NCBI GenBank assembly: GCA_049999805.1
Contig: JBNGIO010004149.1
Location: forward strand, 1 to 36,601
Direction: 5' to 3'
DNA: 36,601 nucleotides
Origin: Folioceros fuciformis
Lineage: Eukaryota
How positions within the stretch are numbered: position 1 is the first letter of the stretch; each line of letters begins with the position of its first letter. Under the pieces are notes generated by a model. That model did not search any database. It was not told the DNA's origin and saw only the letters and a list, made by a program, of their open reading frames with translations. The translations under genes were made by a program, and so were the position numbers. Below, one piece after another: positions 2,976 through 30,348 of the stretch.

Positions 2976-3075
2976 NNNNNNNNNNNNNNNNNNNNNNNNN
3001 NNNNNNNNNNNNNNNNNNNNNNNNNNNNNNNNNNNNNNNNNNNNNNNNNNNNNNNNNNNNNNNNNNNNNNNNNNN
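2976..3075. other. Assembly gap (100 N)
   Basis: Run of 100 N; the round number suggests a placeholder of unknown size. Confidence 0.99.
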
Positions 3076-8794: not shown

Positions 8795-9659
8795 GCACGG
8801 CTTAGCAGGGGTCCCGCTTCGTCCTCATCCCCCCGTACAGGATGTGTACAATGTCGGTCTGCAAGACTAGATGGAATTGGTTAGAGAGTTTGAATCCACC
8901 GAGAAGGAAGGAACGGGAGGAGGAGGAGGAAGGGGAAAGGATGAGGACTCACAGACAGCGTAGATGAATGGGAATTTATGAGACGGTGGAACTCTTGTTG
9001 TTGGGTTGCACGATTGAACACATATGCTTAGCAGAGATTGTGCATTTGTATGTTTTACAAGGAACGCGGATTGGAAGAAGAATTGGCAAGAAGGTTTGAT
9101 GGACGGAGGGAGGGAGGGAGGGATAGAGCTCATGCGTGAATCGTGAAGTTGGCTGGGATCGGAAATGACCCAGGGTGTACCCGGCACGTCGCACGCCGGA
9201 GAGGTGAAGTATGGACATGTGTAAGAAAGTGCGGTTTACGGAGGGACCGTTGGTGGCAGTTGGGGAGGTCAAAAGCAAGATGGCATGATGGGCCGGGGTC
9301 GGGCGACCAGGGGGCAGCGGTCGCGGGAGTCGAGGCAGGCGGAGGACCGGGCGGTGTGCGGCGCATGGGACGACGGGGTAACAGAACAGGAGCGAAACAG
9401 CCTTGGGTGCGACTGTATGGTTAGCGGTTACGAGTCACCGCACCGACTAACAAGCCTGGTGTTTTGCTGTTTCGGGAAGGGTGGGTCGTGGGAGCGAGTG
9501 CCCGGGACTGCACAGCAGGCGAACAAGGCGGCGTCGGGCTCGATCGGCCCCCGGCGCGATCGCGGCGCCACCGTCCTTGCGCCGTGCTGACAGAGAGGCT
9601 GGGGCATTCCTCTGACTCGGAGCGACGCCTGCGGGACCCGCTCAATGCCGTCGCCTCGC

Positions 9660-9665
9660 TATATA
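9660..9665 (+). promoter_or_regulatory. Candidate TATA box of EXPA gene 1
   Basis: TATATA in GC-rich context, followed by a pyrimidine-rich leader and a 5'UTR intron. Confidence 0.55.
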
Positions 9666-9777
9666 GCCTCGCTGCCCCCGCTTGCTAGGACATCGCACAT
9701 CGTCCGTCGCCATCTCTTACACCTGCTGCTCGCTCGCCCGCACTGCCTGCCTCGGACAGCTCGAGCTGAGCTTCCAG

Positions 9778-9951
9778 GTATGTGGTGGCCTGGATCTGGT
9801 TGCGCCGGTTTGGTGTTTGTCTCGCGCTAGGATTTGCTTTGGTGTTGTTTGAGGTGGTGGTGCGGGGTCGGATCTGGCGTTCTGTCGTGGAGGGGCAGGG
9901 TTGGGGAGCTAGGATACATGGCTGAGGTGGGCAATTGATGCAGGTTTGCAG
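9778..9951 (+). other. Probable 5'UTR intron of EXPA gene 1
   Basis: CAG|GTATGT donor at 9778 and a G/T-rich body. TTTGCAG acceptor ends at 9951, 2 nt before the ATG; an alternative TGCAG ends at 9943. Confidence 0.6.
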
Positions 9952-9953
9952 GA

Positions 9954-11285
9954 ATGGCGTCCATCAGATGGCAGGTGCTGCTGCTCGCGGTGATGATGTT
10001 CGTGGCTTACCAGGCGGTCGAGGTGGATGGCGTGCTGGAGAGGTACCAGAAGAAGAATCTGGATCCGAAGAAGCTGAAGAAGAAGGTTGAGCCGTTGAAG
10101 AAGAAGATCGAGTTGCATAAGAAGGATAGCGTGAAGGAGAAGGCTAAGAAGAAGAGTCACGAAGGGAAGAAGAGTCAGGAGGGGAAGAAGGCGAAGAAGG
10201 AGAAGAAGCCGGCTTCTTATGCTAAGAAGCCGTCTTTGCCGAAGAAGAAGAAGAAGCCGTCGCTGCCGTGGAAGAAGCCGTCTCTGCCGAAGAAGTTGCC
10301 CAAGGTCAAGAAGCCTAGCCTTCCCAAGAAGCTGCCGATTAAGAAGCCTAGGCTTCCGAAAGTTTCATACGGTGGAGGATCTGGAGCTGGCGGGCCGTGG
10401 AAGGCCGCTCATGCCACGTTTTATGGAGGAAACGATGCTTCGGGAACTAACGGTGAGCCTCTTCTTCCGTAAGCTAATTCTGGTTCGTTCCGGCTTCAGA
10501 TGTGCATCAGCTCCAGTGTTCGCTCGAGCAGGTGCGCGGGGAGACCTGATCTGAAAGGATTTTTGTTTTCGGGTGCAGGCGGTGCTTGCGGGTACGGTAA
10601 CATCTACAGCTTTGGCTACGGGATCGCCAATGCGGCCCTGAGCTATGCCCTTTTCAACAGCGGTGCACAATGCGGGGCCTGTTACCAGATCAAATGTTAC
10701 GGATCCAAGTGGTGCCTACCTGGAAACCCGTCCATTACCATCACAGCGACCAACTCTTGCCCTCCTAACTGGGCCCTACCCAGCGACAATGGTGGTTGGT
10801 GCAATCCTCCCAGGGAGCACTTTGACATGTCCGTTCCTGCTTGGACCTCGCTTGCAGTTTATGTTGGAGGAATTGTTCCAGTGAATTACAGAAGGTCAGT
10901 ACTGACTCTGATCCCCGTTTTCTACATTATCTGTGCGGCTGCTCGATAGTTTTCTCAATTCGTATGTCGTGTACCGCGCAGAGTGCCTTGCGTCCGTCAA
11001 GGCGGGATCCGATTTACCATCAGCGGTAACCCCAACTTTGATCTTGTCCTCGTTCACAACGTTGCTGGGGATGGTGTTGTGACGGCTCTGTCCATCAAGG
11101 GCAACGGCAACTGGGTGCCGATGAAGCGGAACTGGGGACAGAACTGGCAAGCCGGTGCAGTGCTGACGGGACAGCCACTTTCCTTCCTGGTTAGAACCAG
11201 TGACGGAAGATCGCTCGTTCTGTACAATGTGGCTCCTGCAAACTGGAGCTTCGGCTCGACCTACCAGTCTTCACAGAATTTTTAA
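9954..11285 (+). CDS. EXPA: Alpha-expansin (gene 1) with a long Lys-rich N-terminal extension; exons 9954-10452, 10579-10894, 10982-11285 (372 aa)
   Basis: Signal-peptide-like N-terminus. Motifs [64 protein letters not shown] introns sit at the usual EXPA positions (phase 1 and 2); the spliced length of 1119 nt is in frame. Confidence 0.96.
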
Positions 11286-12157
11286 GCTGACTGTGCATGG
11301 CGCTAGGAGTAGGCGCCAGCAGAGTCAGCAGGTTTGCAGATTGTGCAGGTTGTGCTATCCTTCATGGAGCCCATCAGCTATTTCTTTGGCAGTGCTGTGG
11401 TTTGGCATTCAGTCGCCCGCGGCCTTAGTTGCCCAGAAGTTGCGGGCCCGCTGCGGGCTCTATGCTCGGTTTCAAGGTGAGAGACCCATCTCCAGCTAAC
11501 GGCAATGGAGGTTTCACCCATCCAACTTGTAGTCTGAGTTTCCAACTGTTTCAGCTGCCACCTGCTCGGTGTCATTTCGACAGTTCAGGTTCTTTTGGTT
11601 TTATGTGAAGCAGGCCAGGAACAATAGGTTCCTTGAGCTGAGGCGGCATTCACGGGGAAAGACCGAACCCAGTGTTGCCCTAAAATGCCTCCTTTATGGA
11701 TCGTACTCTTGTAGAGAAGATTATTTATCATTGTGTGCCCACCTGATTAGTGTATCCATCGTGCATCTCAGCCCTCTGGATGTTACCAATTCTATTTCCC
11801 ATTCTAATAAACCGATTTTTTTTATTTTGTAACGAATATGCATTGATTGTGACTATGGCTGTACCAACTGGTCAATGAAAATTGGTTGTGCAAACTGTCC
11901 TTGCAATCGGTGTGTTGTCACTTCTGGCCTTGACTAACAAGAAAAATATACGTCAGATCTGAAACTGGTAGTAATAAATGCATTATGTCTTTTATTAAGT
12001 GAAAACCGATTGTTATTTAATAATAAATACCAAATCTCGCCATGGCGGTAGGTTTGACTATACATAATCAGAATGTGTTAATGCGAATCAGGTCTTAAAG
12101 TCGATCATTATTATGGTGAAGTTGACGCAACGAGGATACGGCAAAGTGGTCCACTCT

Positions 12158-12219
12158 AGCGCCAATGGTGCTTGGTGCAATGCTGCCAGGGAGCACTTTG
12201 ACATGTCCGTTCCTGCTTG
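12158..12219 (+). pseudogene. Fragment of expansin exon 2 (copy of 10782-10843)
   Basis: 58/62 nt identical to gene 1, including a 34-nt exact match; encodes [20 protein letters not shown]. Confidence 0.85.
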
Positions 12220-15200
12220 TAAGTTGTATATTGACTGCTACAGGAATCCAGCGTAGGCTGCTCACTCCGCCCGAGCTTGGCTTTATGTCTGTAGGCGATA
12301 ATCGATGCACGATCCTGTCAGGCTGGAAAGTGTTTCTTCTACCTCCTCTCTCAGGCTGGGTGACCTGCTCATCTTAGATTTAATGGTGCCTTGCCTCGAG
12401 AACTCTCTAGCGCCAGGGCAGCAAGTTTCCAATTAGCATTCCAGCTTTCTGGATCCAACAACCCCGTCAGGCTATCACCGTTCAGAGACGAGCCCATTTC
12501 ATCTCGTTGCTTGCGCACAGGATCTTACAAGTGCCGAACTACTGTACGTTGGAGACTGCAATCCGAGTATCACCAAACTACCGTATGTGTGATCTGACAT
12601 AGGCTGACACTTTGTCAGAAGTACCCGGCTTGTTCACATGCATCAATGAGAATCAAGGCTGTGATGAGGAGCATCCAAATTGGGTGCAACCAAGTCACAA
12701 TAAAGCCTGAGATGAAGAACTTGAGGGGTGGAGTTGAGACTCGGCTGCCAGTGCCTTCGCTTTGCTTTAAATGCAAGCATCTCCGTTGCTCTCCTAGTTG
12801 CTTTCTATTGTTGGTCTGACTGTGGTTCGAAGGATCGACTCCATGGTCCTCATCAACACTTTCGATTGGCTTTGGATAAGACATGGCTAACGTTTGGGCG
12901 ACCCGTGCTCTCACCAAGCAGCCAAGCACAGAGGATGAAGATCGGTTGCAAGCATTGAGAAAGCAGAGAGGCCGTCACATCCGGAGGAGATTCTCCCACA
13001 AGAAAACAAACGGGTGCGCAGAAACTGTGTGGCGGGTGAAGGACGGGCGCGGCTTGTGCCGGCGTGGGTTGCGGTAGGTAATAGACGGCGGAGGGCTGAT
13101 GCTCACGCTCACGAAGGAGAAAGGATTTTCAGGTTCCCATCTCCTTTTACAAAGCTTCACGGATGCAACCATGGCCCATGGGCTCCACTGCCCGAAAGCA
13201 GCCAACCACCCCACCCACGCCATGTACAGTGAATCCCGCACAACTCCTTCAAGTTCTTATCACACAGATACTTACACACAGGAAAGATGATCGCATCGCA
13301 TGCATGCGGTGGAGTGTGATGTGAGTAGAAACAGTGGTAGCGTGGGAGGCGACGTGCGTTCACGTTGTCTGTTTCAAGCTCGCCCCGCATGTGCGAAGGA
13401 GCGTGTGGGAGAGATGCTGCAGTGGCCCTTCATCCAAACCGGTCCGGAGGAAGCTGGAGGCTAGAGCTGGAGCAGTTGACTGTGCCCTGCAGGCTGCCCT
13501 GGGCCCGACCCCTACCCCGACCCCAACCCCGACCCTGCTTTGGGCTCCGCCTCCGGGATTGGGAGGTTTGGAAGTTTGGATGTTGGTGGTTGACAGTTGA
13601 TGTAACAGTCTCTCTCGATCCGCTCAGCTCCGCACCACTGCGCTCGCCTGTGGGTAGATAGATACAAGACGCAACAACAACAGTACGTCCATACGTTGTG
13701 GTGAAGAAAATCCTGGATCTCAACTGCACCCCTTCAATCCAAAATCAGCTCCATGCGTGCTGTGGGTGCGACTATCTGACATGAAATCCCGGACAGGCTT
13801 TGGGTCAGCGAGAATGCTGCTCCTGTGCCCAGTTGCAGCAGACTCCAGAGCCCAGTGGGCTTCGCCAGAGGCCAAGGCAGCCTGAATGTGGCTACAGTGC
13901 CACCACGCTCTCCCTTCACCCATTCAATCCTCCCCTATTGATCCACCCGACTCGCCTTATTATCTCCCATCCCTGCAAAAGGTGAAGACAGACCTGCACC
14001 CGAGTTGTGGTCGCAGCAGCTTCATCAGTTCTCTGTTACCACACTTATGGCGACCCATCTGGGATTTATGACACCGGCCTGAGAACGGGCCTGGAGGGAG
14101 TGAGGCGCCATGAATGCCGGCACGCCAGGCCCAGGCCCGTTTCAAGCCCATGGCCAGGCCCAGGCCCATTGCCAGACCCAGGTCCCAGAATGTTCTTTTG
14201 CGCAGAGTCCCTCATCTGGAAGCAATGCCGAAGAAAGGGCACTGCTTTTCCCTTTTCCCTTTTCCCTTTTCCCTTTTTCTCCCTTCACCGTTTCTCCCTC
14301 CCTGTTGCGAGACGTCTCATAAGCATGTGTGAGCAAGCCCATCACGCCATATGCACATGCTATCACTTGTCGCTTCTCGCTGTACTCGAGGGAGCTTTGG
14401 CGGGCCGTCCCTGTCCCGGTCCCGTTCAGTCCAGTCCAGTCCCGTGCCGTATCGTACCGTACCGTTGGGCCCCACCCCCCGTTGGCCGAGGCCTCCGTAC
14501 GCCGTTCCCACCATCCAAACCAGTTCCCCGGCCGATTGCGTCAAAACTGCAATGAGTGGCGAATGGGCCCTCTACTGCCCTCCCTTGCCGGAAAACGATA
14601 AAACGCAATATGAAAAACCCTAAACTCGGCCCGGACCAGGCCACGCCAAGCCGCCGGTGTCCGCGGTCCGGCGACAAGCTGGGCCCGGACAGGAGGCTCC
14701 GGCCTGACATGGGCCGAGTCCCATGCATCATGATGGCGCAACTGGAACCAGTCAGGCGAAACTGGTGCCACTGGCTGCCTTGGTGCCATCAAGTGGGCAC
14801 CTGCCCGTCCTGGCACTGCGCCGCGAATCGCTTCTCTCAGGAGCCAGTTGCAGCTCGCAGGCGTGCCTGGCTCCCTCCTGGTCGGCCCGAGACCCACAGC
14901 CCACAGTGGCACGCACAAACAAAGTATTTTCACCAAGCCGACAGCGTTGCCCAAGTCATCAATCCATGTCATCACCATAGCCTGGAACTGGGCCTGGAAG
15001 TTGGAACTGGCAGGCAGTTGAAGCCTGGCCCTCCAGGCTGCGGCAGGCACCAGGCACCAGGCAGTGCGCTTTAACCCAAGGCAGTTATGCAGCTTGCACG
15101 CAACAATGAGGGATTGGTGATATGCTATCCTCATTAGGCGTGTAGAGTTGCAGTCTGTGTGTGCGGATGGGATGGAAACTGGTTTCCTTGCAGCTCCGTG

Positions 15201-15790
15201 CTCAGCACTCGTCTCTAAGAAGAGGATGGGCTGTACAAATTTGCCTGAAGGTTATGGAAGTTGGGAGGTACAGTCATATTGGTCGGGAAGAGTCGATTTA
15301 CGGGACTCACTGTCCGGCATTGATTAGTTGATAGGGTGTTGCAGGTGCTCATGCAACCACCCAGTCGAATGTTTTCTTCATACCGCAAGTGTAGGTGACA
15401 ACTAGGCCGATTCCTTGGGTACTGGAAAATACTCTTGAAATTTTGTGAGTGGGGGACTTTTTGCAGCTTCTCACATCCCGAGAAAACAACTGTGTCAAAT
15501 GAGATCTCAGCAAACTGCGAAGTGGTTGTTGTTAACAGGCAAAATAAGAGTACAATACTGTCGTTGTTCTGCGGGATCTGAATTTGATTCTGGCCCGCAG
15601 CCTGCTATCAAAGCTTTTGGAACAGTTTAACCAATAAGGTGGTGGGATGGTCCTACGGACAGACCATATCCAGTCACATGTTAGTGTTGTATACAAGGAG
15701 CTGCGGGCAGCTCTAAAGCGCTCGCCTCGGCTGCTCTTCGGTAATAAAGTACAAGAAGTTGGTGCAGAGGCAGGACAACAAGATCAGCAA

Positions 15791-16923
15791 TTATCCGCGA
15801 AACTGCCTTCCTTCGTAAGTGGTCCCGAATTTCCAGCCAGCAGGGATGACGTTGGGGCTGTTGCAGAATCTCTTGTCGCTGGTGATAACCTTGATGGAGA
15901 AGGATTTGCCATCCAGGTAGTCGTCGTTCTCCCAGTTCTGTCCCCAGTTCCTCCTCAAGGCCTTCCAAGAAGAGCCAGAGCCGACTTGGATGTAAGCTTC
16001 CCTCACGTCTCCTACCCCTCCCACGTTCGTGATTAGAATAAGGTTGAAGTAGCTGTGGCCGTTGATCTGAAACTTGATGCCTCCTTCTTTCACGCACTTC
16101 ACTCTGGGAGACAAAGCGCCGCACAACATTCAGCAAGCCGGTTGCAACAGAAGTTGCAAAGCGTAACAAATCATCAGAATATTGTTGTAACAGTGGTCTG
16201 ATGACACCGTTGAGCTGCAGCAAACGATCAAGCGTACCTGCGGTAGTTGACAGGCACAACTCCAGTGACCGCAGCGGCCATCCTGGTGAAAGCTGGCTGG
16301 GACAGATCGAAATGCACTCTCGGCGCGTTGCACCAGCCGCCGGTCGATCCTTCCGGACAATAATTGGTGGCCGTGACAACAATCTTAGGCGCACCGGAGA
16401 AGCATCCGCCGGTACATTTGAGCTGATAGCAGGCTCCGCAAGTTTCTCCTCCCCCGAACAGAGCCGAGCTGAGAGCAGCGGTGTTGGTACCGTAGCCTTG
16501 ACTGTAGAGATTTCCATACCCGCACGCTCCGCCTGTAACACGAAATTCAACAAGCCTTAGGATGTGAGCTCGAAAGCGACAGACATGCAAACAAGCATCC
16601 ACATCGATTGACACTGTCTGTTGCACATATTGTCAAGACGCAGGAAACGTTCTTAGAACGTTTGCTGCACTCCCTCGACAAAGGAAAAAAAAAATGCTGC
16701 AGGGAAGATGCCCAGCGACAAATGCTGCACATGAAATCCATCTCCACGTTTCGTGCGTCTCCACCAGCTCATACTCACCGTTGGTCTCCGCCGCGTCGGA
16801 TCCTCCATAGAAAGTAGCATGCGCCACTCCCTTCACCCAAGGGTAGCTGATTTTGCCGTGCACTATCCGGCAACTGACAAAAAATAGAGCCAAAACCAGC
16901 TGCAAGGAGCTGATTCCTGCCAT
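15791..16923 (-). CDS. EXPA: Alpha-expansin (gene 2), short form without extension; exons 16923-16779, 16532-16238, 16103-15791 (250 aa)
   Basis: [15 protein letters not shown] signal; [41 protein letters not shown]. Donors GTGAG/GTACG with CAG acceptors; spliced length 753 nt is in frame. Confidence 0.96.
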
Positions 16924-17500
16924 TGAGCTCGAGGAGTGGATGGAATCCGTTCGGTAAGGCGTCGACAAAGCTAAAGAAAGCTGGAAAAATTCTGAAATCC
17001 AGCACGAGAGCACAGCAGAGCAATGCTCCAGGACTGGAGCTCCGAAAACAAGAGAAGAACTGAGAATGGAGACGAATTTGACGAAGACGGAGGGACGTGC
17101 AGTGGGTTGGGATGGGAAGGCAAGCAGCCGCAACTTAAAAGGCCGCAACTTCCCGTGTGTAAGGAAAAAAAGAGACGATAACAAAAGAGGCTTTCGCAAA
17201 AGAGGGTGGTGAGTGAGTGGGCACAACGGAACGGGCCCGCAGCGTTGCGCCGGGCCCAGGCCCGTTTAGGCGTGCCTGACACCTCGCCCGCTGCTCCCGC
17301 TGGTGGTCACATGCCGTAGTTGCCAACCCTGGTAAGCATCCGGTTGACTCGTCCCCGAATGATGCAAGCCCACCAGGCGGAGCACCAGAATGTACTGTAC
17401 TCTCAATCCCGTGTGGAACACTGGAAACAAATGTTGTCGTGTGGTCTCGTGGCGTGTAGATTTGTTAGGAATCGAGACGCGAATTTTGGCATCCGGGTAG

Positions 17501-17504
<4 letters not shown>

Positions 17505-17534
<30 letters not shown>
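17505..17534. repeat. (TG)15 microsatellite
   Basis: Read directly from the sequence. Confidence 0.98.
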
Positions 17535-17537
<3 letters not shown>

Positions 17538-18869
17538 AAATGAGGAGCATTTTTCGAATAAGAAAAAGGCTGACAGATTACGAGTACGTAATGGGAATTG
17601 GAGGGGACGAGACTGACAGAGCACCGACAAGTGGGACAGGGCCCGGCCAAAGGGCACAAAAGAGGGCAAGAAAGCAGCGGCCCGAAAGGGGCTGCAAGCC
17701 ATCATCATCCGGGCAAAGGCTCCAATGATGGAAATGCAAAATGCGTTTGGCCGTAGGCTTGCTTGGAGCCGGGACCGGGCTGAGGGAGAAACCGACCCGT
17801 TCCCCCAGGCGCGTGTCCCCATGTCAGTGGGGCCGGGACCGGGACCGGAGCCTGGGCCCCGCCGGGCACTCAGGTTTTTTCCAGTCCTTGTCAGTGGGAA
17901 CGTGGTAACGCTCCAAAATGGCAAAATTATAGGGGGTTAGGATTTAACCCGCTCGTGTGGCCTCGTGGAGCGGGATTCTGGTGGGCATGGCGTGTTGCAG
18001 GGCAGGGAATGGGAATGACGGATGGAGCGCTGGAAGGAACGCACGTTTCCGGGGCATGGAAACCAGAAACCTGCTTGCCCGCTTAACCAAACAGACTCGG
18101 GCGCTTGGCTTTCTGTTAACGGCTGTTAGGCAGTAGGGTACGCGGTTTAGCCGGCCCTAATCCGCGTAACCACCCCGGGTTTGAATCATGATGGTGGTAA
18201 CCGCTTTCCACCCAGCCATGTCATTTCACGTGGTGTTGCCCGTGGAAAGCCTTGTCGCTGGCCCGTCGTTTCGCCTCGCCCTTTTATCCCGCCCCGTCAA
18301 TCAAGACCGCCATTTACCGGTACCTGGGCGGTTACGGTAAGCGGGTCCCGCCGTGGCGGGCGCGGGAAAAGCGGTTAACCGCCGCGCTAAACCGCCACCC
18401 TCCCGGTCAATACCGGCCTCCCCTCGTTACCCTAATCAACGCCCCTTGCCCTTGCCATTGCCCTGTCTTGTATGCTCTCAAATCTCCCGCCATTTTATTT
18501 TGCACTAGGGTTAGGTTTTCTTTGCTGCCCACTTCCCCTAGTGTACCAATCAAGCTAGTCTAATTATCTGTATGCAAACTTTAAGTCTCTATATGTGCAA
18601 CAATCTTCTAACTATGAACATACAAGGAAGGAAGGATGTGAATTAGGAGAGTGTTGTACAAGTGTGCAAGACACTTACATATCTTGCCGTTCTTTCTAGA
18701 AGTTAGTACATACTATGTCAGAACGCAACATGCTAGCTGTATTTAGTGCAAGGAGTTATAAGTGAAAGCAACTTGGGGCAAAGTGAGTCTCTTGGGTGGG
18801 TGGTATGCTAGTTATTGTGGCAGCTACTCCTACTAATGATCTGACGATTGAAGAAAACTGTTGGCTGCC

Positions 18870-19790
18870 CTTGATGAGAAGAGTTGTAGAAGTGTGTAAG
18901 TGTCAGTTGATGAGCTATGCCGTCCATTATTCCATACGCAGAAGTGTGTAAGTGTCAATTGATGGGCCATGCCGTCCATTATTCCATACGTGTGAGATTG
19001 CTAGGATTTTTTAGCTGATGTACTTGGGTGAGAAGAGTTGTGTAAGTTGATGGGCACTAGTTGTTCTATCAGCCGTGCTTCTCATTATATCCATTCATGT
19101 AGAGAGAGCATTGGCAAAGGCACTTGGTGATTATGAGGGTTGGCAGCGAGTAAGTAAGTTGATGGACACTAGACGCAGTGCCCGCCGTGCATCCTAGCGT
19201 GCCTTTTGTTTGCCATGCTAGCTTGCCTGCCATTGCCATTACATCCTAGCGTGCCTTTTGTCTGCCATGCTAGCTTGCCTGCCATTGCCATTACATCAAA
19301 TACGTTACATCAAATACGTGTGAGGTTGTAAAGAGAATTGCCTTGCCAGAGGCACTTGGTGATCAGAAGGACTGGAAGTGAGCAAGCTGATGGGCACTAG
19401 ACGTTCTGTCAGCCATGCCTTGCATTATATCAATAAGTGCGAGATTGTCAGAAAATTGTAGGTGGCATTTAAACATGTATGAGTTGAAGGAAGCAAGTCC
19501 ATGGTTCTAGCTACACCTCGAAGGTGGTAATGAGTAATGTGATATGTCTTCCTTTGACTCAAGTTGAGGCCTCATTCACACATGGTCTACATAGCTTCTA
19601 GCTACATAGCTTCTTCGGTGACATTTAAACATGTGTGAGTGGAAGGAGGCAAGTCCATGGTTCTAGCAACACCTCGGCCGCAAGTCCAAGGTTCTAGCTA
19701 CACCTCGAAGGTGGTAATGAGTAATGTGACATGTCTTCCATTGACTCACGTTGAGGCCTCATTCACACATGGCCTACATAGCTTCTACAA
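18870..19790. repeat. Nested local duplications inside a CpG-poor island (probable decayed TE)
   Basis: 52-bp duplications near 18888/18940 and 19190/19242; TTACATCAAATACG twice; ~19470-19600 repeated in ~19625-19790; recurring GATGG.CACTAG. Confidence 0.8.
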
Positions 19791-21060
19791 AATCCCACCC
19801 ACCATGAAAGAAAATACCCTTTCCCAAGTTTCTCGAGCCTGGGAGGTACCATGCATTGGACTTCAATTCCACATAGGGAGAATTCAAATCTAAACATGAC
19901 ATTCCAAGCCTAGGTTGATGAGAAGTAGCATCACATTGGGAATACTACCTCAGCATTAAGAAGCAACAATGAATGCTGATCAAACAGAGGAGAGAGCACA
20001 TTATCAAATCTCTTGGGTAGTGGAACCTGATTCTCATGCCAATAAATATCCTACCTGCTTCTGCTTCTGCTTCTCCTTCTCCTTCCGCTTCTCATTGTGC
20101 TTGCCGTCTTCCACTACTTGGGATAGGATACTGTAGTCGGGTGGGAGTGGGTTGCCACTCCCTTCTTGGGAAGGGCGCAAAGGCCATGGAATTCCATGTG
20201 GAAAACACAAGGGGTGGGCCAAGCTCAAATGTGCAATTTCCTCATGTGGGCCAACTTCCTCTCTGCCCAGCCCCACGCTGCACATGCCATGCATGCATGC
20301 CCGCCCATCTCCGTCCCGGACCAGGTCCCGTTACACCGGGCCCGGCCCATCCCATCCCGGGGCTGGTCATTTATTGTCGTCACCATACTTGTGGCCCAAA
20401 CACGGGCCGGGTTAGGCGCCGGATTGCGGGCCCGGGCCTGCACCCCTTCCCTTTTCAATAACAACTGGCTTCCAAAAACTCTTTCCCGGACGTGGTGGGA
20501 AGCCTGATCAGCCGGTCAAATGTCAGAGCCCGTTAACCGAGCCCTTCACACGATTCCATTATCCTCACATTTATGATACGATTAATGGACGATCCAGATC
20601 CCCCGGGCCCGCCGCTCGTCCTCTCGCACAGATAAGTGAGGTCACACAGCGCACTTCACGTAAAGACAAGGCGTGGCTGCATAAAGAGAAAGCAGGCACC
20701 AGACCAGGTTGAGTCGAGTCGAATCGAATCGAGCCCCGCTTTACCAAGATCACTATGCTCTACTGGGCCTGCCAAGCCCTAACACGAAAGCCCACCATCT
20801 TCGTGGGTCCGGGCCTGTTCGGCTCGGCGGATCGTTGAATCTCATTAAGTCGGGTATGTAATGGTAATGCTGTTGCAGTATCAATGTCGGACGTTAATTG
20901 TCGGGCATGAGCAGTCCAGTAATCTCATTTCCGGCCCATCAGTTGGGCATCGGATTCGATCCCGGCACTTAAACCTTTTTCTGTTCCCAGAGCCAAGCAC
21001 TAACCAACAAGCCACATCACGCAAGCCGCAATCCCGTTTCCCCGAATAGCACCTCCCTAG

Positions 21061-21085
21061 CCAGGCCAGGCCAGGCCAGGCCAGG
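21061..21085. repeat. (CCAGG)5 microsatellite
   Basis: Read directly from the sequence. Confidence 0.95.
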
Positions 21086-23382
21086 TAACTGCCGAGCCCG
21101 TTGACGCCGTGTTGTGGCCCGCGCGCCAAGCCCGGTTAAAACAGACGGCCGTCCCTCACCGCCGGATGGCAATGCCCGGCCCCATCTGACGCGCAGGAGT
21201 GCGGCAGCCCCCATATATTTTTATCACGGCCCGATTGTGGCGCAGGCCAAGAAGGTCAACCCGCGGCCGTCGACAGTTGCCCAAACGGAATTAACGACCG
21301 TCTGGCCCGGACGCGGCAGCCGTGGGATGGAAGCCGGGCAGCCGCAGCCGTCGATGCGCGTCATCATGCCGGACGGCCGCTACTGGCTACCAGCCTGCGT
21401 GTCCGGACAAACCAAGGGATTCTGACGCCGTCTAATTGGGCGGACGGAGGACAGGCCTTCCTTCGCCCGGGCCCGCGATCGGGGTCCCACTCGCTCGGGC
21501 CGGTAATGGCAGTTTTGGAAGTTGTCCTGCCCCGAGGCCGAGGCCCCACCTCACATGCCCCGCCTGCGACTGGTCCCGGATCCCGTCCTTCTCCCCGGTT
21601 TGTGTAGGTATTCAATGCTGGTATTGTGAGGGATGGGCTTCCGCTCCGGGCCACGCCACGGAGCTTCCTTTCAGCGATGGTCCCGACCCGTCCAGTTCGC
21701 GCGGACGGGACGGGACAGGACGGGACGGGTGTTGGAAACGAAGTGGTGCAGACCAACAGCGGCCCGAATCGGGCCGTGGTCCGGACTCCGTCATGCCCAT
21801 GTGCGTGCTCCTGTCTTCCGTGCCCAAAACAAGGGCAGTGTTTTTGCGTCCCAAGTGTTTGTATGTACGTACCCTACGCCGGGGCGGCCACCGGAAAGCA
21901 GGAAAGGAAAGGAAAGCTTCTTGTAGTCTCTCTGCATGTCGGTCCGAGAGAATTCCATAAACAGACTCTGCTTTGGGCCGCGAAGGAAGGGCGCTGGTTC
22001 AGTTCAGGGTACAGGAAGGGCGAGCGACGATGCACGTCTGTTTCTTTGTGGGTCGGGCTGCGACGTAGATTCCAGGCTCGGACAAGACGCGCGTCACTTC
22101 CCGTCGCATCACGGCCGGGACCTGAAGTCGCGAGTCACACGAGTCACCAAACACATCACCATAAACACGCACACGGCATGATCTGACGAGTTGCCTTTGG
22201 CGCTCTCTTCACAGCGGCCGCACCGAGGGAGGGGACTCCTTTGCTCTCCTCTGCTTGGCGTACCAACCAGACTGAGTACGTCAAACAGGAGGCTGGACCA
22301 GCCCGAATCGGGCTGGGCTGCGACTCCCAACGCCGCAATTGCAACCACCTCCTGCCAACTACTGAAATTCCGGCCTCACGAGCAGCCGTTGGTGCATTAT
22401 GCTGCTGCTGCTGCATGGCCCCGGTCGTGCGTCTGGCTGGCAGGGGTACTTCCCAACACCAGACTACCAGTGCAAGCCCGCAAGGTGAATTGGGTTGTTG
22501 TTAGGTCGGATCGGGAAGCCTGATCGGCGGCCCTTGGACAGGACGGGGCCTCCCTGCTTGGACGGGCCCCGATGTACACTGTGTGTGCAAACACGAGCCC
22601 CCTCGGCCCGGCAATGCATCCATCCTCCACCGCATTATACAACGCATTCCTGTACCGGTAGCCTGCTTCCTTTAACCGCTTCTTCCCTATTTCTCAACAC
22701 CCCATTCCGGGCTTCCTTTCTTCTCCTCTGCATCTCCCTCTATTCATAAGAGTCAGTCCCGTAGCGTAGAGTAAGTGCACCCCATCTTCACCCTCGCTGC
22801 GGTCTGCGTCGTCTGTGGTCCCATGGCAGCCCGTGTCCGCCGGGCCGGTCTCTACCTCACAGGCTCTGCTCCCGGACCGGCTGACACCGCTCCCGGCGCG
22901 ACCACGTCCAATCCTCCTCCTCTTCCTCCTCCTCCTCTTCGCCTGCCCTGCCCTGCCCTCCCCTCCCCTGATCTGGTCCAAGATCATCTGCATCGCCAAT
23001 CCAGAGCAGAGCAAATTCCTCATCGCCCATTCCATTGAATTCCTCTTTGCCGCAGTTGGCCCCGCTTTTGTCCGCACCTGCAGCTCCCCGCTCTCTCTCC
23101 TCTGCCATAGCCTGCCTCTCTCTGCGGGCCTGTGGCTGCTGGGAGCATAAAACGCCGGCCTCCGGCCATCAGTAGTACTCTGCATCTGCGAATTCGCCTC
23201 CGGCTCTCCTCTCAGGCAGGCCCGCATTGCAGCCTAGTTCTCGGCATTGCCGCTCCTGGCATCTTGCGACCTCCCGGTTTCCAGCTTTCAGCTTCAGCGC
23301 AGCAAGAACTCACCAGCAGCATTGCGGAGCTCGCTGCCTGCTCATTTGCAAGTTCGCTCTCCCGCCCTCTCCTCCCCCCGCG

Positions 23383-24467
23383 ATGGCGGTCCTGCAAGTG
23401 AGCGTTTTCTTGGCTGTGTTTCTCGCCGCGGCGGTGCAGCAGGGGGGGGCTGTGGGAGGCCATCCTCCCGGCGTGGGCCACCACGCTCCTGGAAAGGGCC
23501 ATCACCCTCCTGGAAAGGGACACCACAAGAAGGGGTCTCAGCCTGGGAGCAGTGGCGGGGCTCTGGGAAGCTGGAACAGTGCCCATGCCACATTCTACGG
23601 GGGGAATGACGCCTCCGGAACGATGGGTGAGTGTGGCCATCTCCCTTCCTGGAGCTGCCATCTTGGCTCGGACAGAATTGGTTCTCTTCGTTCTCGCGCG
23701 CTTTGTTTTCGCCTCTCCTTGTTTCTCACCTGTCTGCTCCATCTGCAGGCGGGGCATGCGGCTATGGCAACCTCTACAGCGAGGGATACGGCACCAACTC
23801 TGCTGCACTGAGCACTGCCCTGTTCGACAACGGGCTTTCGTGCGGAGCCTGCTTCGAGATAGCCTGCGACTCCTCCGGCACCAAGTACTGCCTCGGTTCC
23901 AACTCCATCATCGTCACTGCCACCAATTTCTGCCCGGAGAACCTCGCCCTCCCCAACGACAACGGCGGTTGGTGCAACCAGCCCCGCCAGCACTTCGACA
24001 TGTCCGTCCCCGCCTTCGACCAGCTTGCCGCCCACGTCGCAGGAATCGTGCCAGTGAAGTACAGGAGGTGGGTTTCTTGCCCTTCAGCCCTCTTTCGCGA
24101 GCAATGCGGTTGGAGGTTGGGTGTCTGACCTGGTTCTCCGTTTCTTTCTGTCGCTCTGCTCAGGGTGACCTGCGTGAGGAAGGGAGGCGTTCGCTTCCAC
24201 CTCAACGGCCACGACTACTTCCTGCTCCTGCTGGTCTCCAACGTGGGAGGAAACGGAGCAGTTCACTCTGTCTCGCTCAAGGCCGGCAATGGGCCGTGGA
24301 AGGCTCTGAGCCGGAACTGGGGCCAGAACTGGCAAGACAATGACTACATTACGGGCCAGGCCCTCTCCATTTCCATCACCACGGAGGACGGCAAGACATT
24401 GATCTCCAACAACGTCGCTCCAGCGGGATGGCATTTCGGGGACACCTACGAGGGCTCGCAGTACTGA
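23383..24467 (+). CDS. EXPA: Alpha-expansin (gene 3) with His/Pro/Gly/Lys linker; exons 23383-23626, 23749-24067, 24164-24467 (288 aa)
   Basis: [17 protein letters not shown] signal; [42 protein letters not shown] introns; spliced length 867 nt is in frame. Confidence 0.96.
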
Positions 24468-26197
24468 GCAAAACAACACTGCAGGCTGGGCTCGTGTACC
24501 ATAGCAGCAGATCTCTCTATCTGGTGCAGCAGCTTTCTCTGTTTCTTGTATTCTTTTTATTTTCACGTCGGATACGCGGATGCGGGGGCTGATAAAGCAG
24601 CCCGCTCCACCGCCTTTCAATCGCAGCTGTGCAGCAGCGGAAGGTGGCTCTGCTCTTGCCTCCCGCTGCACAGTTGCAGGATTGAACGGCATAGTTGGTA
24701 AGCCCAACATTTGAAAGTAGCTGAGGTGGTAATTAGCCACCCGCTGTGTTCCGTAGCGAAAGAAGGTTGAATAGGGAAAACTCCTATTTGCACTTGGGTT
24801 GTGTCTGCGAAGTGAGATTGGCTTCTTGCCATCCCTTCCAGGGACCCAAGCGCTCTTATTGTATCAGCCCTCAATATGAGCTGTGCATCTTCATGTGCCC
24901 TAGTCTTCGTAATGCAAAGTGTTTGTGGCTTCATGGACATTTCAGAATACGTCAAGACTCTCCCTCCAGTGCGGTACGCTGAGCTGCATTTTCTTCCAAA
25001 AGTCCGGTGACCGGCTTCACGAATTCGATTCCCTCAATCAATCAATCTTGCACATCGTCTTTCTTTGGCTGATGGTTACCAACTGAAATTTCCGTCCCGA
25101 CAAAGTGCGTCCGACGATTGCGTTGAGTAGATCGTCTGCTTCAGTTTCGTGCAGTCGTGCATGTCCGTTTCTGCCTCTGCAACTGAGTTTCAAGTGTGAA
25201 CGTGCTGTATTCTACAATAGATGGATTGCTAACCAGGGGCGTGCCCGGACCCAACTTGTGCGTGTTATTACGGAGTTGGTTGTACTGGTTGCCAAAACTG
25301 ACACAAAGAGAAGCATCAGAAAACAACATCGGGGAGGGAATCTCGTGTGCAGTCCCCGAGCCGGTGTACATAAGCATGACCTGATCTGACCGGCCCTCTC
25401 ACCTGTCCTGACCGGCCCGGTCCGGTCCGGTCCGGCCCGGCCCTCTGGTTTCCTCTTCTGCTCCCCTCTTGTGCTGCTGCACAAGTCTCGCCAAGCCTGA
25501 GGCATGATCGGAATGTGACGAATGTGCGCACCTCACGCACCTGCAGCCTTGCACCTTTTCCTTCTTTCCCGAGGTAAAGAGGAAAAGCTGAACGTGATGT
25601 CATGTTGTACCACCACCGGTTGTCGTTGCCTGGGCTCTGGGTTACACTGTTACAGAGGGAGCAGATGAGCGAGTGGAACACAAGCATTGGGCGTTGGGCA
25701 GGTTGACAGCGTTTTTCTCTTTTGGCACGAGTTGGACTACGCTTACAAGGACTTCGAAGGCTCATGTGCAATTGGCATAATATTTGATTTTGATAGAAAA
25801 GGAACTCGTCCATGTAGAGCAGGAGCAGAATTTTAGATCCAACTCCGAGTAGTCTATCTATTTTACACAGAAAACTGCTGTCTAGACTGAGGCCCGACTT
25901 TAGCATCCGTGGTGTAGCGCAGAGGGTGGCAATTGCTGCATACAAATCACCTCTTCTGCGACCCAACACACAACTGAGCTATGACCTCCTGTGTCAAAAC
26001 CAAGTACCCTGATGAGAGGCTATCCTTTAACGGCGCTCCCATCTACATACTTCTCAGTCAGTACCTTTAACCATGATACATGCCTTACCCCTATTGCATT
26101 GGGCAGAAGGCTATCAGACACAAAGCTGGAAGATCCATAAAATTACACCGGCTGCAGACCAATTTGAACGAAAGGGACGGAGGTGAAGGAGGAGCCT

Positions 26198-27307
26198 TCA
26201 AAATTGGGCTCCGGAAAAGGTCTGCCCAAAGTTCCAGCTAGTGGGTGTGACGTCGTAGGAAATGAGGGTGCCGCCACTGGTGGTGACTTGGAAGGAGAGG
26301 CTCTGGCCGTTGAGGTAGGAGTTGCTCTGCCAGTTCTGGCCCCAGTTCCTCGTCATCGCCTCCCATCCGGTTCTAGAGCCCTTGACGGAAACAGCATGCA
26401 CGTCTCCTGCTCCTCCCACGTTGGTGACGAGCACCAAGTTGAAGTAGGCATGACCATTGATTGTGAACTGGATGCCCCCCTTCTTCACACACGAAACTCT
26501 GCACATGGAGCATTGCAGTGGAAACGTCACGCCACGAGTTCACGACCCAGGGCTGCAGATGCCACTAAAGCAGTGTGGTGCGCTCAGCATAGCCCGCGGT
26601 GGCCTCTCACCTTCTGTAGTTAACGGGAACGATGCCGGCCACTTGCTCTGCAATATCCAAGAAAGCAGGCACGGACATGTCGAAGTGCTGGAGAGGCATG
26701 TTGCACCAGCCCCCAGCGTCGTTGGGGAGAGCGGGATTCGGAGGGCAGAAATTGGTGGCAGTGATCGTGATGGGGGCAGATCCCTTGCACCACTTGGAGC
26801 CAGTGCATTGGATCTGGAAGCAGGCCCCGCAGGAGGCTCCATTGTTGTACAGCGCTGTGCTCAGAGCTGCTGTGCTGGTTCCGTAGCCCCGGTCGTACAG
26901 GTTTCCGTATCCACATGAGCCCCCTGCAATTCCAATCAGCTGGCCAGATCAGAACCTCTGCTTCGAAATTGGAAGCAAAGCGGACAGAAGAGAAGGCGTT
27001 CGATCGGTTGCTGCGTACCCAGTGTCCCAGACGCGTCGTTGCCTCCGTAGAATGTAGCATGAGCAGTTGACCAGCCAGCGCCTCCAGAATAGCCGCCAAC
27101 ACCACCACCGCCAGAGCTGCCACCATTCTTCTGGACACTTGCAGATTTGTGGTGCCCGCCTCCACCTTTGTGGTGACCGCCTCCCGCTTTGTGGTGCCCA
27201 ACTGTTGCTCCGTGTTTTCCTTTCGCGAGAACGAGTTGGCAAGATGGAAGTAGGAACAAGAACACCACCAATGCCGTCGAGCTCGATCTCTGCAGACGCA
27301 ATGCCAT
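26198..27307 (-). CDS. EXPA: Alpha-expansin (gene 4) with His/Gly/Lys linker; exons 27307-27019, 26923-26611, 26498-26198 (300 aa)
   Basis: Hydrophobic signal ([17 protein letters not shown]); [58 protein letters not shown] introns; spliced length 903 nt is in frame. Confidence 0.96.
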
Positions 27308-28279
27308 TTCTCACGGAAGCGAGGAGGGACGGAAGGGTGCTGACCCTGCTGGTCTTGCCGGTGCTGCAGATGCTGCTGCTCCTGCCTGCTGGGCTCAATC
27401 AACTGTGACTCTGAAGAGAAGGAACTGCAGCTGGAGATAGTGGAGATCAATCTCCACCACAACGATGCACAGAAAAGAGAAAATGGTGGCCGAAATCTGC
27501 ATCACAAGCAGGTGGGTGCTCAAGATGTGGTGAGAGGCGCGGGGGAGAGGCGAGTCAGGGCAGGCCAGAGAGCTGCACTGCGCAGGTCGAGGAGGCAAAG
27601 AAAGCAGGTCAGATGTTTGAATGAGTGCAGAGAGGCTAGGATTGCAGGCAATTTATGTGGCATGCCCGACGATTTGAAACAGTCGTGTGACGTTACCAGT
27701 GCCTCATTCACCACTGGTTGTGCTGGTGATGGAGGAGGGAGGAGAACCAGGAGAGCGCGAGCGCCACAATCATCCGGTGAGAACGGAGACCTGCATTAAA
27801 CTCGTTTCAATTTGTCAGAGAAGCAATAGTTTGATGTACAAGCTGGTAGACGGGGAGCCAAAAGCGGGCTTGCTTGCTTGCATCCAAAACTCGGTTGGCA
27901 GTCACCACATCAGGACATCTCCACTCAGTTACCCGGGCCTTCTTGGACAACATTCAATGCAAGTCAGTGTCTGTCTCTGAACGGGCCCACAAAATGGGTT
28001 TTCTAAGCTCCCTGCACGACACCCCCCTTTAACGGGTGTCAGAGCACATCCGAAATTTTGCATATTATTGCTCCTCACACATGGCCGGTCTGACACCAGT
28101 TCTCTCTCTTGTTCTTTGTCGAATCTCCCAAGCCTGACCTAACGCTCACCAGATGAAACTTCTATAGCATCCCATACATCTCTGTGACGCTTGCACGTAA
28201 GAGGAGATATATGTCTGCAAATTCCCAAGCATGATCCTTTTAACACAGTCCCTGATTCCAGATTAGAGCAACAGCTAAC

Positions 28280-28388
28280 AAAACTGTTGCAGGACATGCT
28301 CTTAAAACTGTTGCAGGACATGCTCTCAAGACTGTTGCACGACATGCTCTCAAAACTGTTGCAGGACATTCTCTCAAGACTGTTGCAG
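28280..28388. repeat. 24-bp minisatellite, ~4.5 copies
   Basis: Unit AA(A/G)ACTGTTGCAGGACATGCTCT(C/T) starting at 28280, 28304, 28328, 28352, 28376. Confidence 0.95.
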
Positions 28389-30348
28389 AAAGAGATTTCC
28401 CAGCTTTGCTGATTTACAAATTGCAAGACGTGGAACTTTACATTCTATCCTATCTTTGCTGCCAAGCCAAGCTGGCTTCTGGCTCAATGTTTTTACAACT
28501 GGCCCGATCACGTTCCCATGACAGTTGAAGGCGACTGGAGTGTCGGAGACCAAGCAGACAGCTTCAGTGATGGCACTATGGCTCAGATTCATATCTTTGC
28601 ACCAGGGCCTGGGCAGCCACAGGCTCCCTGCGGCCCAGTCTGGGCTCCATAAGGATAACCTTTTCTGGAAACCAGTTGCCATGCAGAAGGCTCTGTAGCC
28701 ACAAGAGCTACTGCACAAAGCAAGGAGGGCCCCGGGCCTCTCAGCTGCACTCATCGGTACAGTGTCCCCCAGTTACCAGTTTGGGTGCAGTACAACTCCC
28801 ATCACGGCCCTACAATCCGTTGTGAGGTTGCTCTGCAGGCCACCGCCCAGGGCTTCGCCGCAAAAGGACAAGGACAAGAGTACAGGATGCCGAAACCCCG
28901 CCTTCCGGGCCTGCTGCCTGCAAAGCCCCCATGTAAGACAAGTAAGAAGAGTAGAGCAACCATACAAACAGAAAGATACTGCAAGTTTCATCATCTCTGC
29001 TTCGTAAAGCTGTTCGTGCTGTCATTTGCATCTGGCCAAGTACGCGCACAGCTCTGCAAGCCTTGTTGGGTGATGGTGGGATTGGAACTCGAAGGTCCTC
29101 GATTCCCATCGGCCACCAGAGTAGGAATTCGAAATTCAAGGCACCGTCAGGATGACGAAAGCAGAGCCAATTTCACCATCACCCGGTGCCAGTCATGGGA
29201 CGTAGTGAGAGCACAACTTTCCAAGTGCGGCTCTGCCTACCGTGACGCCGTGCAACGGAACGGCTCTTTGAGGCCATCACATGGGCAGGCATGCTGCGCA
29301 TGGATGAGATACATAGGCGGGGGTGTCCGGGAAGTTCGAAACCGCGACAGCGACAGGTAGCGCCATCGATCACATGGTCCCACTCCTCTCTCGCACTTGT
29401 AACCGCGGCTGAATAGCGGCCTTTCGCACAAGCACGCACGCACCCAGCACAGGGCACTGCCCTTTCAAACAGACTGCTAGGATACCTGGATCATGGTGCA
29501 CTGGGTAGCGTCCACATGGGGTGTGGTGAGTCCACTAGCAATGCTCGCACAGGACGAGCAGCAGCACATGAGAGATTCACGCTTCCGCAAGCTTGCCAGC
29601 TTCCAGCTGATGGCAGCTTATTCCAGGACCCACCCAGCTCCGCACATGCATAAGCTTGCTAGCCATGTACATGCAGTGCCATGTCGTAACCTCCATGGCT
29701 GATCCTCGCCGTGGTTCACAATTTCACTCTCCTCTCCACTACCATTCGCAGCCCATCCAGAATTCCAGACGGGATGGATCCTTCGTGTTCTGTCCCTCAA
29801 TCTTCTCGGGACGCGAGCTCCAATTTGATACGCTGGCCACAGATTCCACGGTTACACCTAAGGTTCCTCCAACTTGTGAAATTTGTGACTGCCAATCAGG
29901 GACAGCCAGGGCCCGCTCATGTGGAGACTAGACTGGTCCTGGCCATCCATGGCATAGGGTGGTTGTTCTTGTTGAACCTGTTGTAGTCACAGTGGTTAGC
30001 TAGGGTGGTGTCACATGCTTTATCCTCCTGTCGTGTCGTGGGCCCTTGAACCCACTGTGACACAGTGCAGGTCAGCCTGGCTAGAGTTTTGAACCTCACA
30101 AACTTGTGTAGACGACCAGATCGTACTGACCCGGCACAGTCTCTAACGTACAGTCACAGAGCCGTCTTCTGCGAATGCCGATGCCGTGACATCTCCGTCC
30201 GGACCAGTGTCCTCGCTCGCTCGTCAACACCAAATTGTGATTCTCGTGATCCAGGAGACTGCAGGTCACGACACGCAGTCGAGAGCGTTGTAGGATTAAC
30301 GCCGTCAGTCTCTGTGTTTTCTCTGCCGTCTGATGTCTGATCCCGATT

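Follow-up and report, generated by a model that had tools for sequence, protein, structure and literature searches.

The alpha-expansin (EXPA) gene cluster on contig JBNGIO010004149.1 of Folioceros fuciformis raises the question of whether the cationic stretches that some of its proteins carry ahead of domain 1 affect how these proteins are held in the cell wall. The whole stretch of DNA analysed, here called the window, is 36,601 bases long and contains a single run of 100 N at 2976-3075. The initial annotation had described four EXPA genes as intact, with the same intron positions and the HFD motif retained, and splicing, Pfam matches and motif positions bore this out. Four complete EXPA genes with uninterrupted coding sequences (g1 to g4) were located within 9954-27307 by stop-to-stop open reading frames (ORFs), peptide anchoring, junction reading and coordinate splicing; 9954 is the ATG of g1 and 27307 that of g4, on the minus strand. 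We consider it virtually certain that the locus consists of four intact, transcribed EXPA genes bearing the N-terminal modules described below.

Each gene has three coding exons. Those of g1 lie on the plus strand at 9954-10452, 10579-10894 and 10982-11285 (372 amino acids, aa), those of g2 on the minus strand at 16923-16779, 16532-16238 and 16103-15791 (250 aa), those of g3 on the plus strand at 23383-23626, 23749-24067 and 24164-24467 (288 aa), and those of g4 on the minus strand at 27307-27019, 26923-26611 and 26498-26198 (300 aa). All eight coding introns are of the GT..AG type and 87-246 nucleotides (nt) long, and their two positions are common to the four genes at the level of the codon. 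The first is a phase-1 intron directly ahead of GACGYG/GSCGYG, which splits the first Gly codon of GGxCGYG, and the second is a phase-2 intron within the second Arg codon of YRR. The ORF list and the reading of the leaders showed in-frame stops upstream of all modelled ATGs with no earlier in-frame ATG; in g4, the ORF list places a stop codon immediately upstream of the ATG.

The transcript evidence came from sequencing run X1, which contains 80% of the sampled words from 9900-11400. X1 is not on record as RNA, and its contigs were treated as transcripts because they omit GT..AG introns: those placed on 8800-28500 lack exactly the eight predicted introns of g1-g4. The pieces for g1, g3 and g4 had 0 differing letters relative to the window and contained exon 1 and the extension contiguously, so that the exon 1 extensions, whose presence in RNA the initial annotation had left to be confirmed, occur in spliced contigs of all three genes. 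For g2, the evidence consists of two joints, 16103..16238 and 16531..16778. The g1 transcript, a spliced contig of 1828 nt, covers 9615-9774, 9941-10451, 10578-10892 and 10980-11821 on the plus strand, and the transcripts of g3 and g4 cover 22981-24945 (plus) and 27680-25775 (minus), respectively. The depth of X1 contigs is not usable for ranking expression, and rare isoforms may escape. In g1, the joint between 9774 and 9941 defines an exon of the 5' untranslated region (5'UTR) at 9615-9774 on the plus strand and a GT..AG leader intron of 166 nt at 9775-9940. The spliced g1 leader carries an in-frame stop, and its first in-frame ATG is the one at 9954; it also contains one out-of-frame upstream ATG, opening a 60-codon upstream ORF that overlaps the main start codon. 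X1 contigs with loose ends leave the window sequence at 27386, 8930 and 22165. The first of these positions lies in the 5'UTR of g4 and may reflect an alternative leader or a 5'UTR intron, and the other two suggest additional transcribed, non-coding-looking stretches at 8800-9456 and 21940-23253. Runs X2 and X3, from other organisms of the same study, matched in short conserved stretches only, 18-42 letters long (34-42 inside expansin genes), and yielded no orthologues.

EXPA proteins have eight Cys and are defined by an insertion before HFD, and four Trp in domain 2 are diagnostic of the expansin C-terminal domain. When the four proteins were examined for these features, exon 2 of each gene matched Pfam DPBB_1 with 63.6-77.0 bits (cut-off 28.8) and exon 3 matched Expansin_C with 85.5-105.1 bits (cut-off 24.6), and no Pfam family matched exon 1 of any of the four. 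In g1, the DPBB domain is encoded by exon 2 at 10579-10894 on the plus strand (E 8.3e-20; HFD at 10818-10826; bounded by joints of the X1 contig), and the Expansin_C domain and stop codon by exon 3 at 10982-11285 on the same strand (E 3.1e-28), the transcript extending to 11821. HFD and four Trp in domain 2 were found in each protein. Cys residues number eight, seven before and one after YRR; g2 has nine, the extra one being located in domain 2. In the alignment, g1, g3 and g4 carry the insertion ahead of HFD (…ALP.D.GGWCN.P…), and that of g2 is shorter by five residues. The best homologues are named expansin-A (68-74% identity), and the solved EXPB and EXLA chains gave weak matches (E 9e-5 to 7e-4). 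Each of g1-g4 starts with a few polar residues and then a run of hydrophobic ones, a putative signal peptide, and the AlphaFold2 model of g1 has an N-terminal helix. By their sequence, the bodies of g1-g4 are canonical two-domain EXPAs, and presumably they loosen walls as other members of the family do. They share with canonical EXPAs a putative signal peptide, DPBB with HFD, Expansin_C with four Trp and the eight Cys, and are 57-74% identical to EXPAs from seed plants, ferns, Selaginella and Sphagnum.

The proteins differ from canonical EXPAs in the linker, defined here as the stretch from the end of the signal peptide to the conserved Trp. With signal-peptide ends and cleavage sites chosen heuristically, the linker comprises 127 aa in g1 (about 10017-10397, plus strand; 44 K, 15 P, 12 L and 8 E), 6 aa in g2 (minus strand), 40 aa in g3 (about 23452-23571, plus strand; 13 G, 7 H, 6 P and 4 K) and 49 aa in g4 (about 27220-27074, minus strand; 20 G, 7 H and 5 K, in GHH heptads and a Gly/Ser-rich part), whereas most homologues have approximately 5-15 aa. 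The sizes given at the outset, about 120 aa for g1, none for g2 and about 40-50 aa for g3 and g4, were accurate. In the 120 homologues listed from a search with exon 2 of g3, the ATFYG motif mostly begins or falls between residues 25 and 44. In the metagenome set (266 expansin-encoding stretches, of which 80 were kept and exon 1 was detected in 76), 34-40 aa precede the motif in 59 of the 76 exon-1 sequences from plant contigs. Since the motif position and the lengths ahead of it are short in other EXPAs, the extensions of g1, g3 and g4 are real departures. Sixteen longer exon-1 sequences (56-124 aa before the motif; nine distinct) were rejected as upstream-ATG read-through artefacts. Some long 'expansin' database entries (P0034, P0016, P0007 and others) are annotation fusions or internal duplications, such as a Sphagnum entry with two Expansin_C domains and tandem-gene fusions of 424-609 aa, and their length is therefore no evidence for real extensions. 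The linkers of the cluster would have grown within exon 1 through tandem duplication of short DNA units.

The linkers of g3 and g4 have a common layout: one degenerate heptad, three clear GHHxxxx heptads and a Gly/Ser-rich hinge. At the DNA level, 21-nt tandem repeats are present in 3.2 copies at 23460-23526 (g3) and 2.6 copies at 27146-27199 (g4). The initial annotation had called for a search for EXPAs with K- or H-rich linkers. The His-rich kind turned out not to be unique, as it was found in seven of the 120 listed homologues, whereas none of these had a Lys-rich linker. The seven are Selaginella moellendorffii P0068, Oryza glaberrima expansin-A5 (P0099), sequences from Leersia, Eleusine, Panicum and Arundo, and one unnamed entry; in the named ones, the residues that separate the signal peptide from the conserved Trp are rich in His and Gly, and in the five grass homologues the linker ends in HAP[L/I]GG. 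Residue order was separated from composition by a shuffle test with 2000 shuffles. The results showed that the score of g3 against g4 was reached in none of the 2000 (z 6.2), that of g4 against Selaginella P0068 in 7 (z 3.1) and that of g3 against P0068 in 24 (z 2.7). Against the rice-type linker, the score was reached 148 times for g4 (z 1.6) and 447 times for g3 (z 0.8), and the g1 linker gave 793 with g4 (z 0.3) and 1355 with g3 (z -0.4).

Judged from residue order, the g3 and g4 linkers share a common origin, and this order has been preserved despite a core identity of 65%. Our reading of the sequences is that the GHH-heptad linker was inherited in one EXPA lineage that includes g3, g4 and perhaps Selaginella P0068, which has the GHH-heptad and Gly/Ser-rich layout of g4 and a near-neutral core with an isoelectric point (pI) of 7.0. 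The grass linkers are HP/HG-rich, their order is not significantly like that of g3 and g4, and their cores are basic. They probably arose independently, because the grasses form their own clade inside the angiosperm EXPAs (Shimodaira-Hasegawa-like approximate likelihood ratio test, SH-aLRT, 100). This tree was a quick IQ-TREE analysis of 32 cores, with g2 and one Adiantum sequence left out. The g3, g4, Selaginella, fern, moss and conifer sequences fell into an open polytomy, and the tree therefore settles no clade for the His-linker genes. When exon 1 of g4 was compared with longer proteins, none of the 982 candidates was significant, and a literature search, supplements excluded, found no discussion of His-rich linkers in EXPAs. 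In one family study, the alignments were trimmed from the conserved Trp (PMC3680112), and a second study on family evolution contains no passage on the EXPA N-terminal region (PMC13493406).

The g1 tail is of a different kind. Coding exon 1 (9954-10452, plus strand), delimited by translation, splice sites and X1, encodes the putative signal peptide, the 127-aa linker and the start of domain 1. Part A of the linker (residues 27-78 approximately; 10032-10187, plus strand) is Lys/Glu/Leu-rich and predicted to be helical. Part B (10209-10364, plus strand), predicted to be coil, contains five KKP[S/R]LP units at residues 91, 100, 107, 119 and 130, which fall within residues 86-137 approximately. 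A single-sequence AlphaFold2 model placed a helix at residues 38-72 and coil at 79-147; the block at residues 41-60 reached a mean predicted local distance difference test score (pLDDT) of 90-93 in a model that is weak overall (mean pLDDT 68.6). The underlying DNA is tandemly repetitive, with periods from 9 to 48: period 15-27 at 10048-10107 and period 18 at 10148-10190 in part A, and tandem repeats of period 21, 27 and 48 at 10192-10295 for part B. In g1 exon 1, 44 of the 45 Lys codons are AAG and one is AAA. Three acidic and three basic residues are found among the first 15 after the hydrophobic core, and since these residues are balanced in charge, the strongly positive stretch starts away from the signal peptide. 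The position of the tail thus appears compatible with normal translocation and secretion.

Searches for relatives of the g1 tail were blank. Comparison of g1 exon 1 with longer proteins gave 5721 word-sharing candidates, none of them with E <= 0.001, HMMER returned 0 matches among 1.84 billion representatives, and residues 22-147 had no usable match in the ESM Atlas; low-complexity queries score poorly, and the blank searches with exon 1 of g1 and g4 are weak evidence of absence. A cationic linker was found in none of the 76 metagenome exon-1 sequences, and a g1 orthologue was absent among the 80 metagenome expansin stretches kept out of 266, where the top identity was 75%. Two classifications of the tail were considered and rejected. 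A histone-H1-like or nuclear nature disagrees with the hydrophobic N-terminus and the eight-Cys secreted domain. As to a hydroxyproline-rich module of the kind found in proline-rich proteins (PRP) or arabinogalactan proteins (AGP), Pfam recognized no family on exon 1; under the rules of Pro hydroxylation, glycomodules are Ser-Pro, Ala-Pro, Thr-Pro or runs of Pro, and in the g1 linker the residues that precede Pro are Lys, Leu, Asp, Glu and Gly, with no Ser-Pro, Ala-Pro, Thr-Pro or Pro-Pro.

We estimated what the linkers contribute to the charge of the proteins. With fixed pKa values, and with glycosylation and possible Pro hydroxylation ignored, the crude linker charges at pH 4.5 and pH 7.5 were +39.9 and +35.1 for g1 (net about +36), +10.9 and +4.6 for g3, and +11.9 and +5.6 for g4. 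The corresponding estimates for linker plus core were +14.4 and +8.3 for g2, +17.5 and +1.2 for g3, +18.8 and +7.0 for g4, and about +50 and about +41 for g1. Near neutrality, most of the linker-supplied charge is gone in g3 and g4, and g1 carries a large constant charge on an already basic body. The cores themselves differ, with pI values of 5.9 in g3, 7.7 in g4 and about 8.9-9.0 in g1 and g2; among 76 other usable EXPA cores the median pI was 8.84 (interquartile range 8.34-9.17), and 11% were below 7.5. The g3 and g4 cores are thus non-basic, unlike those of canonical EXPAs. Because the charges of linker and core sum, the His linkers would lift the non-basic bodies of g3 and g4 to an ordinary EXPA charge at acidic pH. 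The idea that the cluster encodes a tuned family graded by charge therefore held in its arithmetic, the g1 charge being constant and those of g3 and g4 titratable, but the totals of g3 and g4 at pH 4.5 are near that of g2, which is practically devoid of a linker. The values point to charge compensation or a pH switch in g3 and g4 rather than an added tether, and the His linker seems to stand in for charge that the core lacks.

The reading we tentatively favour, at somewhat less than an even chance, is that the linkers act electrostatically in wall retention. The linkers of g1, g3 and g4 would stay on the mature proteins and set their electrostatic interaction with anionic pectin, and hence their retention and mobility in the wall. 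In g3 and g4, the GHH-heptad linker would provide the positive charge missing from the core, and because this charge is titratable, the proteins would match an ordinary EXPA in positive charge when the pH is acidic and growth-permissive, and would be nearly neutral at pH 7 or above. In g1, the constant charge of about +36, carried by the helical Lys/Glu part and then the KKPSLP repeats, would keep the protein attached to de-esterified pectin whatever the pH of the wall, and the protein would probably be confined close to the site of secretion. This reading is consistent with reports that His-rich and Lys-rich cationic peptides of wall glycoproteins bind the pectic rhamnogalacturonan II (RG-II) ionically, polyhistidine reversibly and best at pH 2.5-5.5, and polylysine permanently (PMC10707938). 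Electrostatic binding to pectin has also been reported for an EXLA (Men et al. 2026, cited in both PMC13493406 and PMC13299222). That g1 is a naturally 'self-anchoring' expansin is unlikely in our estimate; if it were true, plants would control expansin via diffusion and retention, beyond gene expression and wall pH.

Several observations weigh against the electrostatic reading. The cores of the grass His-linker EXPAs are basic (pI 8.6-9.0), the core pI of the five usable His-linker homologues did not differ significantly from that of the 76 others (Mann-Whitney p 0.29), and the pattern of His linker and non-basic core comprises three proteins. The linker boundaries are heuristic and the charge estimates crude, as stated above. 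The DNA repeats of g1 and the AAG near-uniformity (44/45) fit recent slippage no less than selection, and since no orthologue of the g1 tail was found, its conservation is not assessable. Raising the negative charge of onion walls with pectin methylesterase lowered expansin-mediated creep (PMC7210771), and strong ionic binding could therefore hinder rather than help loosening. The g1 tail of about +36 might thus serve confinement or even the damping of loosening.

The extensions could instead be neutral low-complexity expansions, generated by replication slippage of short repeats and tolerated in the unconstrained stretch from the signal peptide to domain 1, where they would serve no particular function. 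In their DNA, the three linkers all consist of tandem repeats, the Lys codons of g1 are almost uniform, its tail has no matching family or homologue, and the N-terminal region was trimmed as unalignable in an expansin family study (PMC3680112). Neutral drift accounts less readily for g3 and g4, which at a core identity of only 65% still have heptad register and flanking residues in common, for the comparable architecture of Selaginella P0068 (z 3.1), and for the His-rich linkers kept by five grass homologues. The 127-aa frame of g1, built from imperfect repeats (65-92% matches), is still open and in the transcript. On balance, we regard neutral expansion as rather unlikely.

With a still smaller likelihood, the extensions are propeptides or serve trafficking or latency and are cut off before the protein reaches the wall or as it does so, which would leave ordinary EXPAs as the mature proteins. 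The abundant KK/KR pairs in the g1 linker are candidate dibasic cut sites, and a Gly-rich hinge lies ahead of the conserved Trp in g1, g3 and g4. Pfam, however, recognized no processing motif or prodomain family, and the compensation in g3 and g4, where a non-basic core is paired with a cationic linker, would be hard to understand for a linker that is lost.

His-rich stretches generally bind metals, and the paired His every seven residues, seven His per linker, could enable the GHH heptads of g3 and g4 to bind Zn, Cu or Ni and couple expansin action or stability to apoplastic metal. Sequence does not separate such an effect from that of charge, the Lys-rich tail of g1 would be left unexplained, and His protonated at acidic wall pH binds metals poorly; we consider metal binding very improbable. 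Least probable of all is that the cationic linkers chaperone the borate bridging of RG-II and so couple pectin cross-linking with loosening of the cellulose network, a chaperone role having been reported for the His- and Lys-rich peptides of AGP31 and AGP17/18/19. In vitro, dimerisation of RG-II is promoted both by His-rich peptides, down to a length of 22 residues, and by cationic peptides of AGPs (PMC10707938), and g3 and g4 have 7 His and 4-5 Lys within 40-49 residues, but their His density of approximately 15-18% is far under that of the AGP31 stretch (14/22, PMC10707938), and polylysine stayed bound without turnover (PMC10707938), which argues against a catalytic role for g1.

Several known systems are comparable with the linkers of the cluster. 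In beta-expansins (maize EXPB1, group-1 grass pollen allergens), an N-terminal extension likewise lies between the signal peptide and domain 1, but it belongs to another family and is short, with a conserved motif of the VPPG-PNITT type, and not polycationic (PMC4021193). The His-stretch of AGP31 and the basic regions of AGP17/18/19 are cationic stretches of secreted wall proteins that bind pectin ionically, in a pH-dependent manner for His (PMC10707938). They are modules of arabinogalactan proteins and not of expansins, so the likeness is one of working and not of membership; no sequence relationship to AGP modules was detected by Pfam (exon 1 of all four genes) or by HMMER and the Atlas (exon 1 of g1). 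The EXLA mentioned above belongs to the expansin superfamily and binds pectin electrostatically according to the same citations (Men et al. 2026, in PMC13493406 and PMC13299222), but it is another family, and in g1, g3 and g4 the charge sits in an appended low-complexity linker.

The proposal of a modular set built by varying exon 1 was weakened. The cores of g1-g4 are 55-65% identical to one another, a distance similar to that from angiosperm EXPAs (57-74% for the top-5 blastp matches). Because the four cores are just 55-65% identical, the cluster is old; by this measure, its members are long-diverged paralogues and not a recently built modular set or graded toolkit. The most divergent paralogue is g2, with 55-58% identity to the other three. 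The query with exon 2 of g3 found 2758 expansins, and among the best 120 listed, which cover angiosperms, conifers, ferns, Selaginella and Sphagnum, identity was at most about 74-75%. As a hypothesis, a graded, tuned system is attractive, and the evidence neither demands it nor speaks decisively against it.

Ordinary EXPA genes, commonplace tandem expansin clusters and His-rich linkers in public EXPA sequences are already known. The pairing of a GHH linker with a non-basic core and the 127-aa Lys/Pro tail of the g1 type were not found in literature and sequence searches, in which plant proteins were covered by three queries with capped listings and in which low-complexity stretches are hard to match. 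Accounts of expansin action usually invoke gene expression and wall pH, and expansin mobility and binding to components other than cellulose are poorly understood. Electrostatic trapping by pectin has been proposed as a limiting factor (PMC7210771). The cluster offers natural constructs from one organism, namely no tail, a titratable His tail on a non-basic body and a permanent tail of about +36, with which a tuning of loosening by charge-based retention could be tested. His-rich linkers occur repeatedly among EXPAs and are routinely trimmed from family analyses. Should the tails turn out to be cleaved or neutral, the locus would be no more than an ordinary expansin cluster.

Across the window, G+C content per kilobase ranges from 34 to 63%. 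The DNA between the genes is GC-rich (50-63%) and without recognisable ORFs, with simple repeats of (TG)15 at 17505-17535, CCCGAC-type hexamers at 13504-13535 and CCAGGC-type hexamers at 14125-14188. Pfam analysis of 101 ORFs in the flanks and 84 between or beside the genes revealed no further gene and three sub-threshold chance matches. When the four proteins were compared with the window by tblastn, a relic of EXPA exon 2 appeared on the plus strand at 12158-12217, approximately 340 nt past the end of the g1 transcript. It encodes 20 aa around HFD with 80% identity to g1 residues 235-254; other exons were not found by the same comparison, the ORF containing the relic (12068-12256) had no Pfam match, and the relic is probably the remnant of a fifth, decayed EXPA copy. 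The sole other recognisable coding feature of the window is an ORF at 36088-36600 on the minus strand that leaves the window end and matches Pfam RVT_2 (E 7e-18), a fragment of a Ty1/copia-type retrotransposon.

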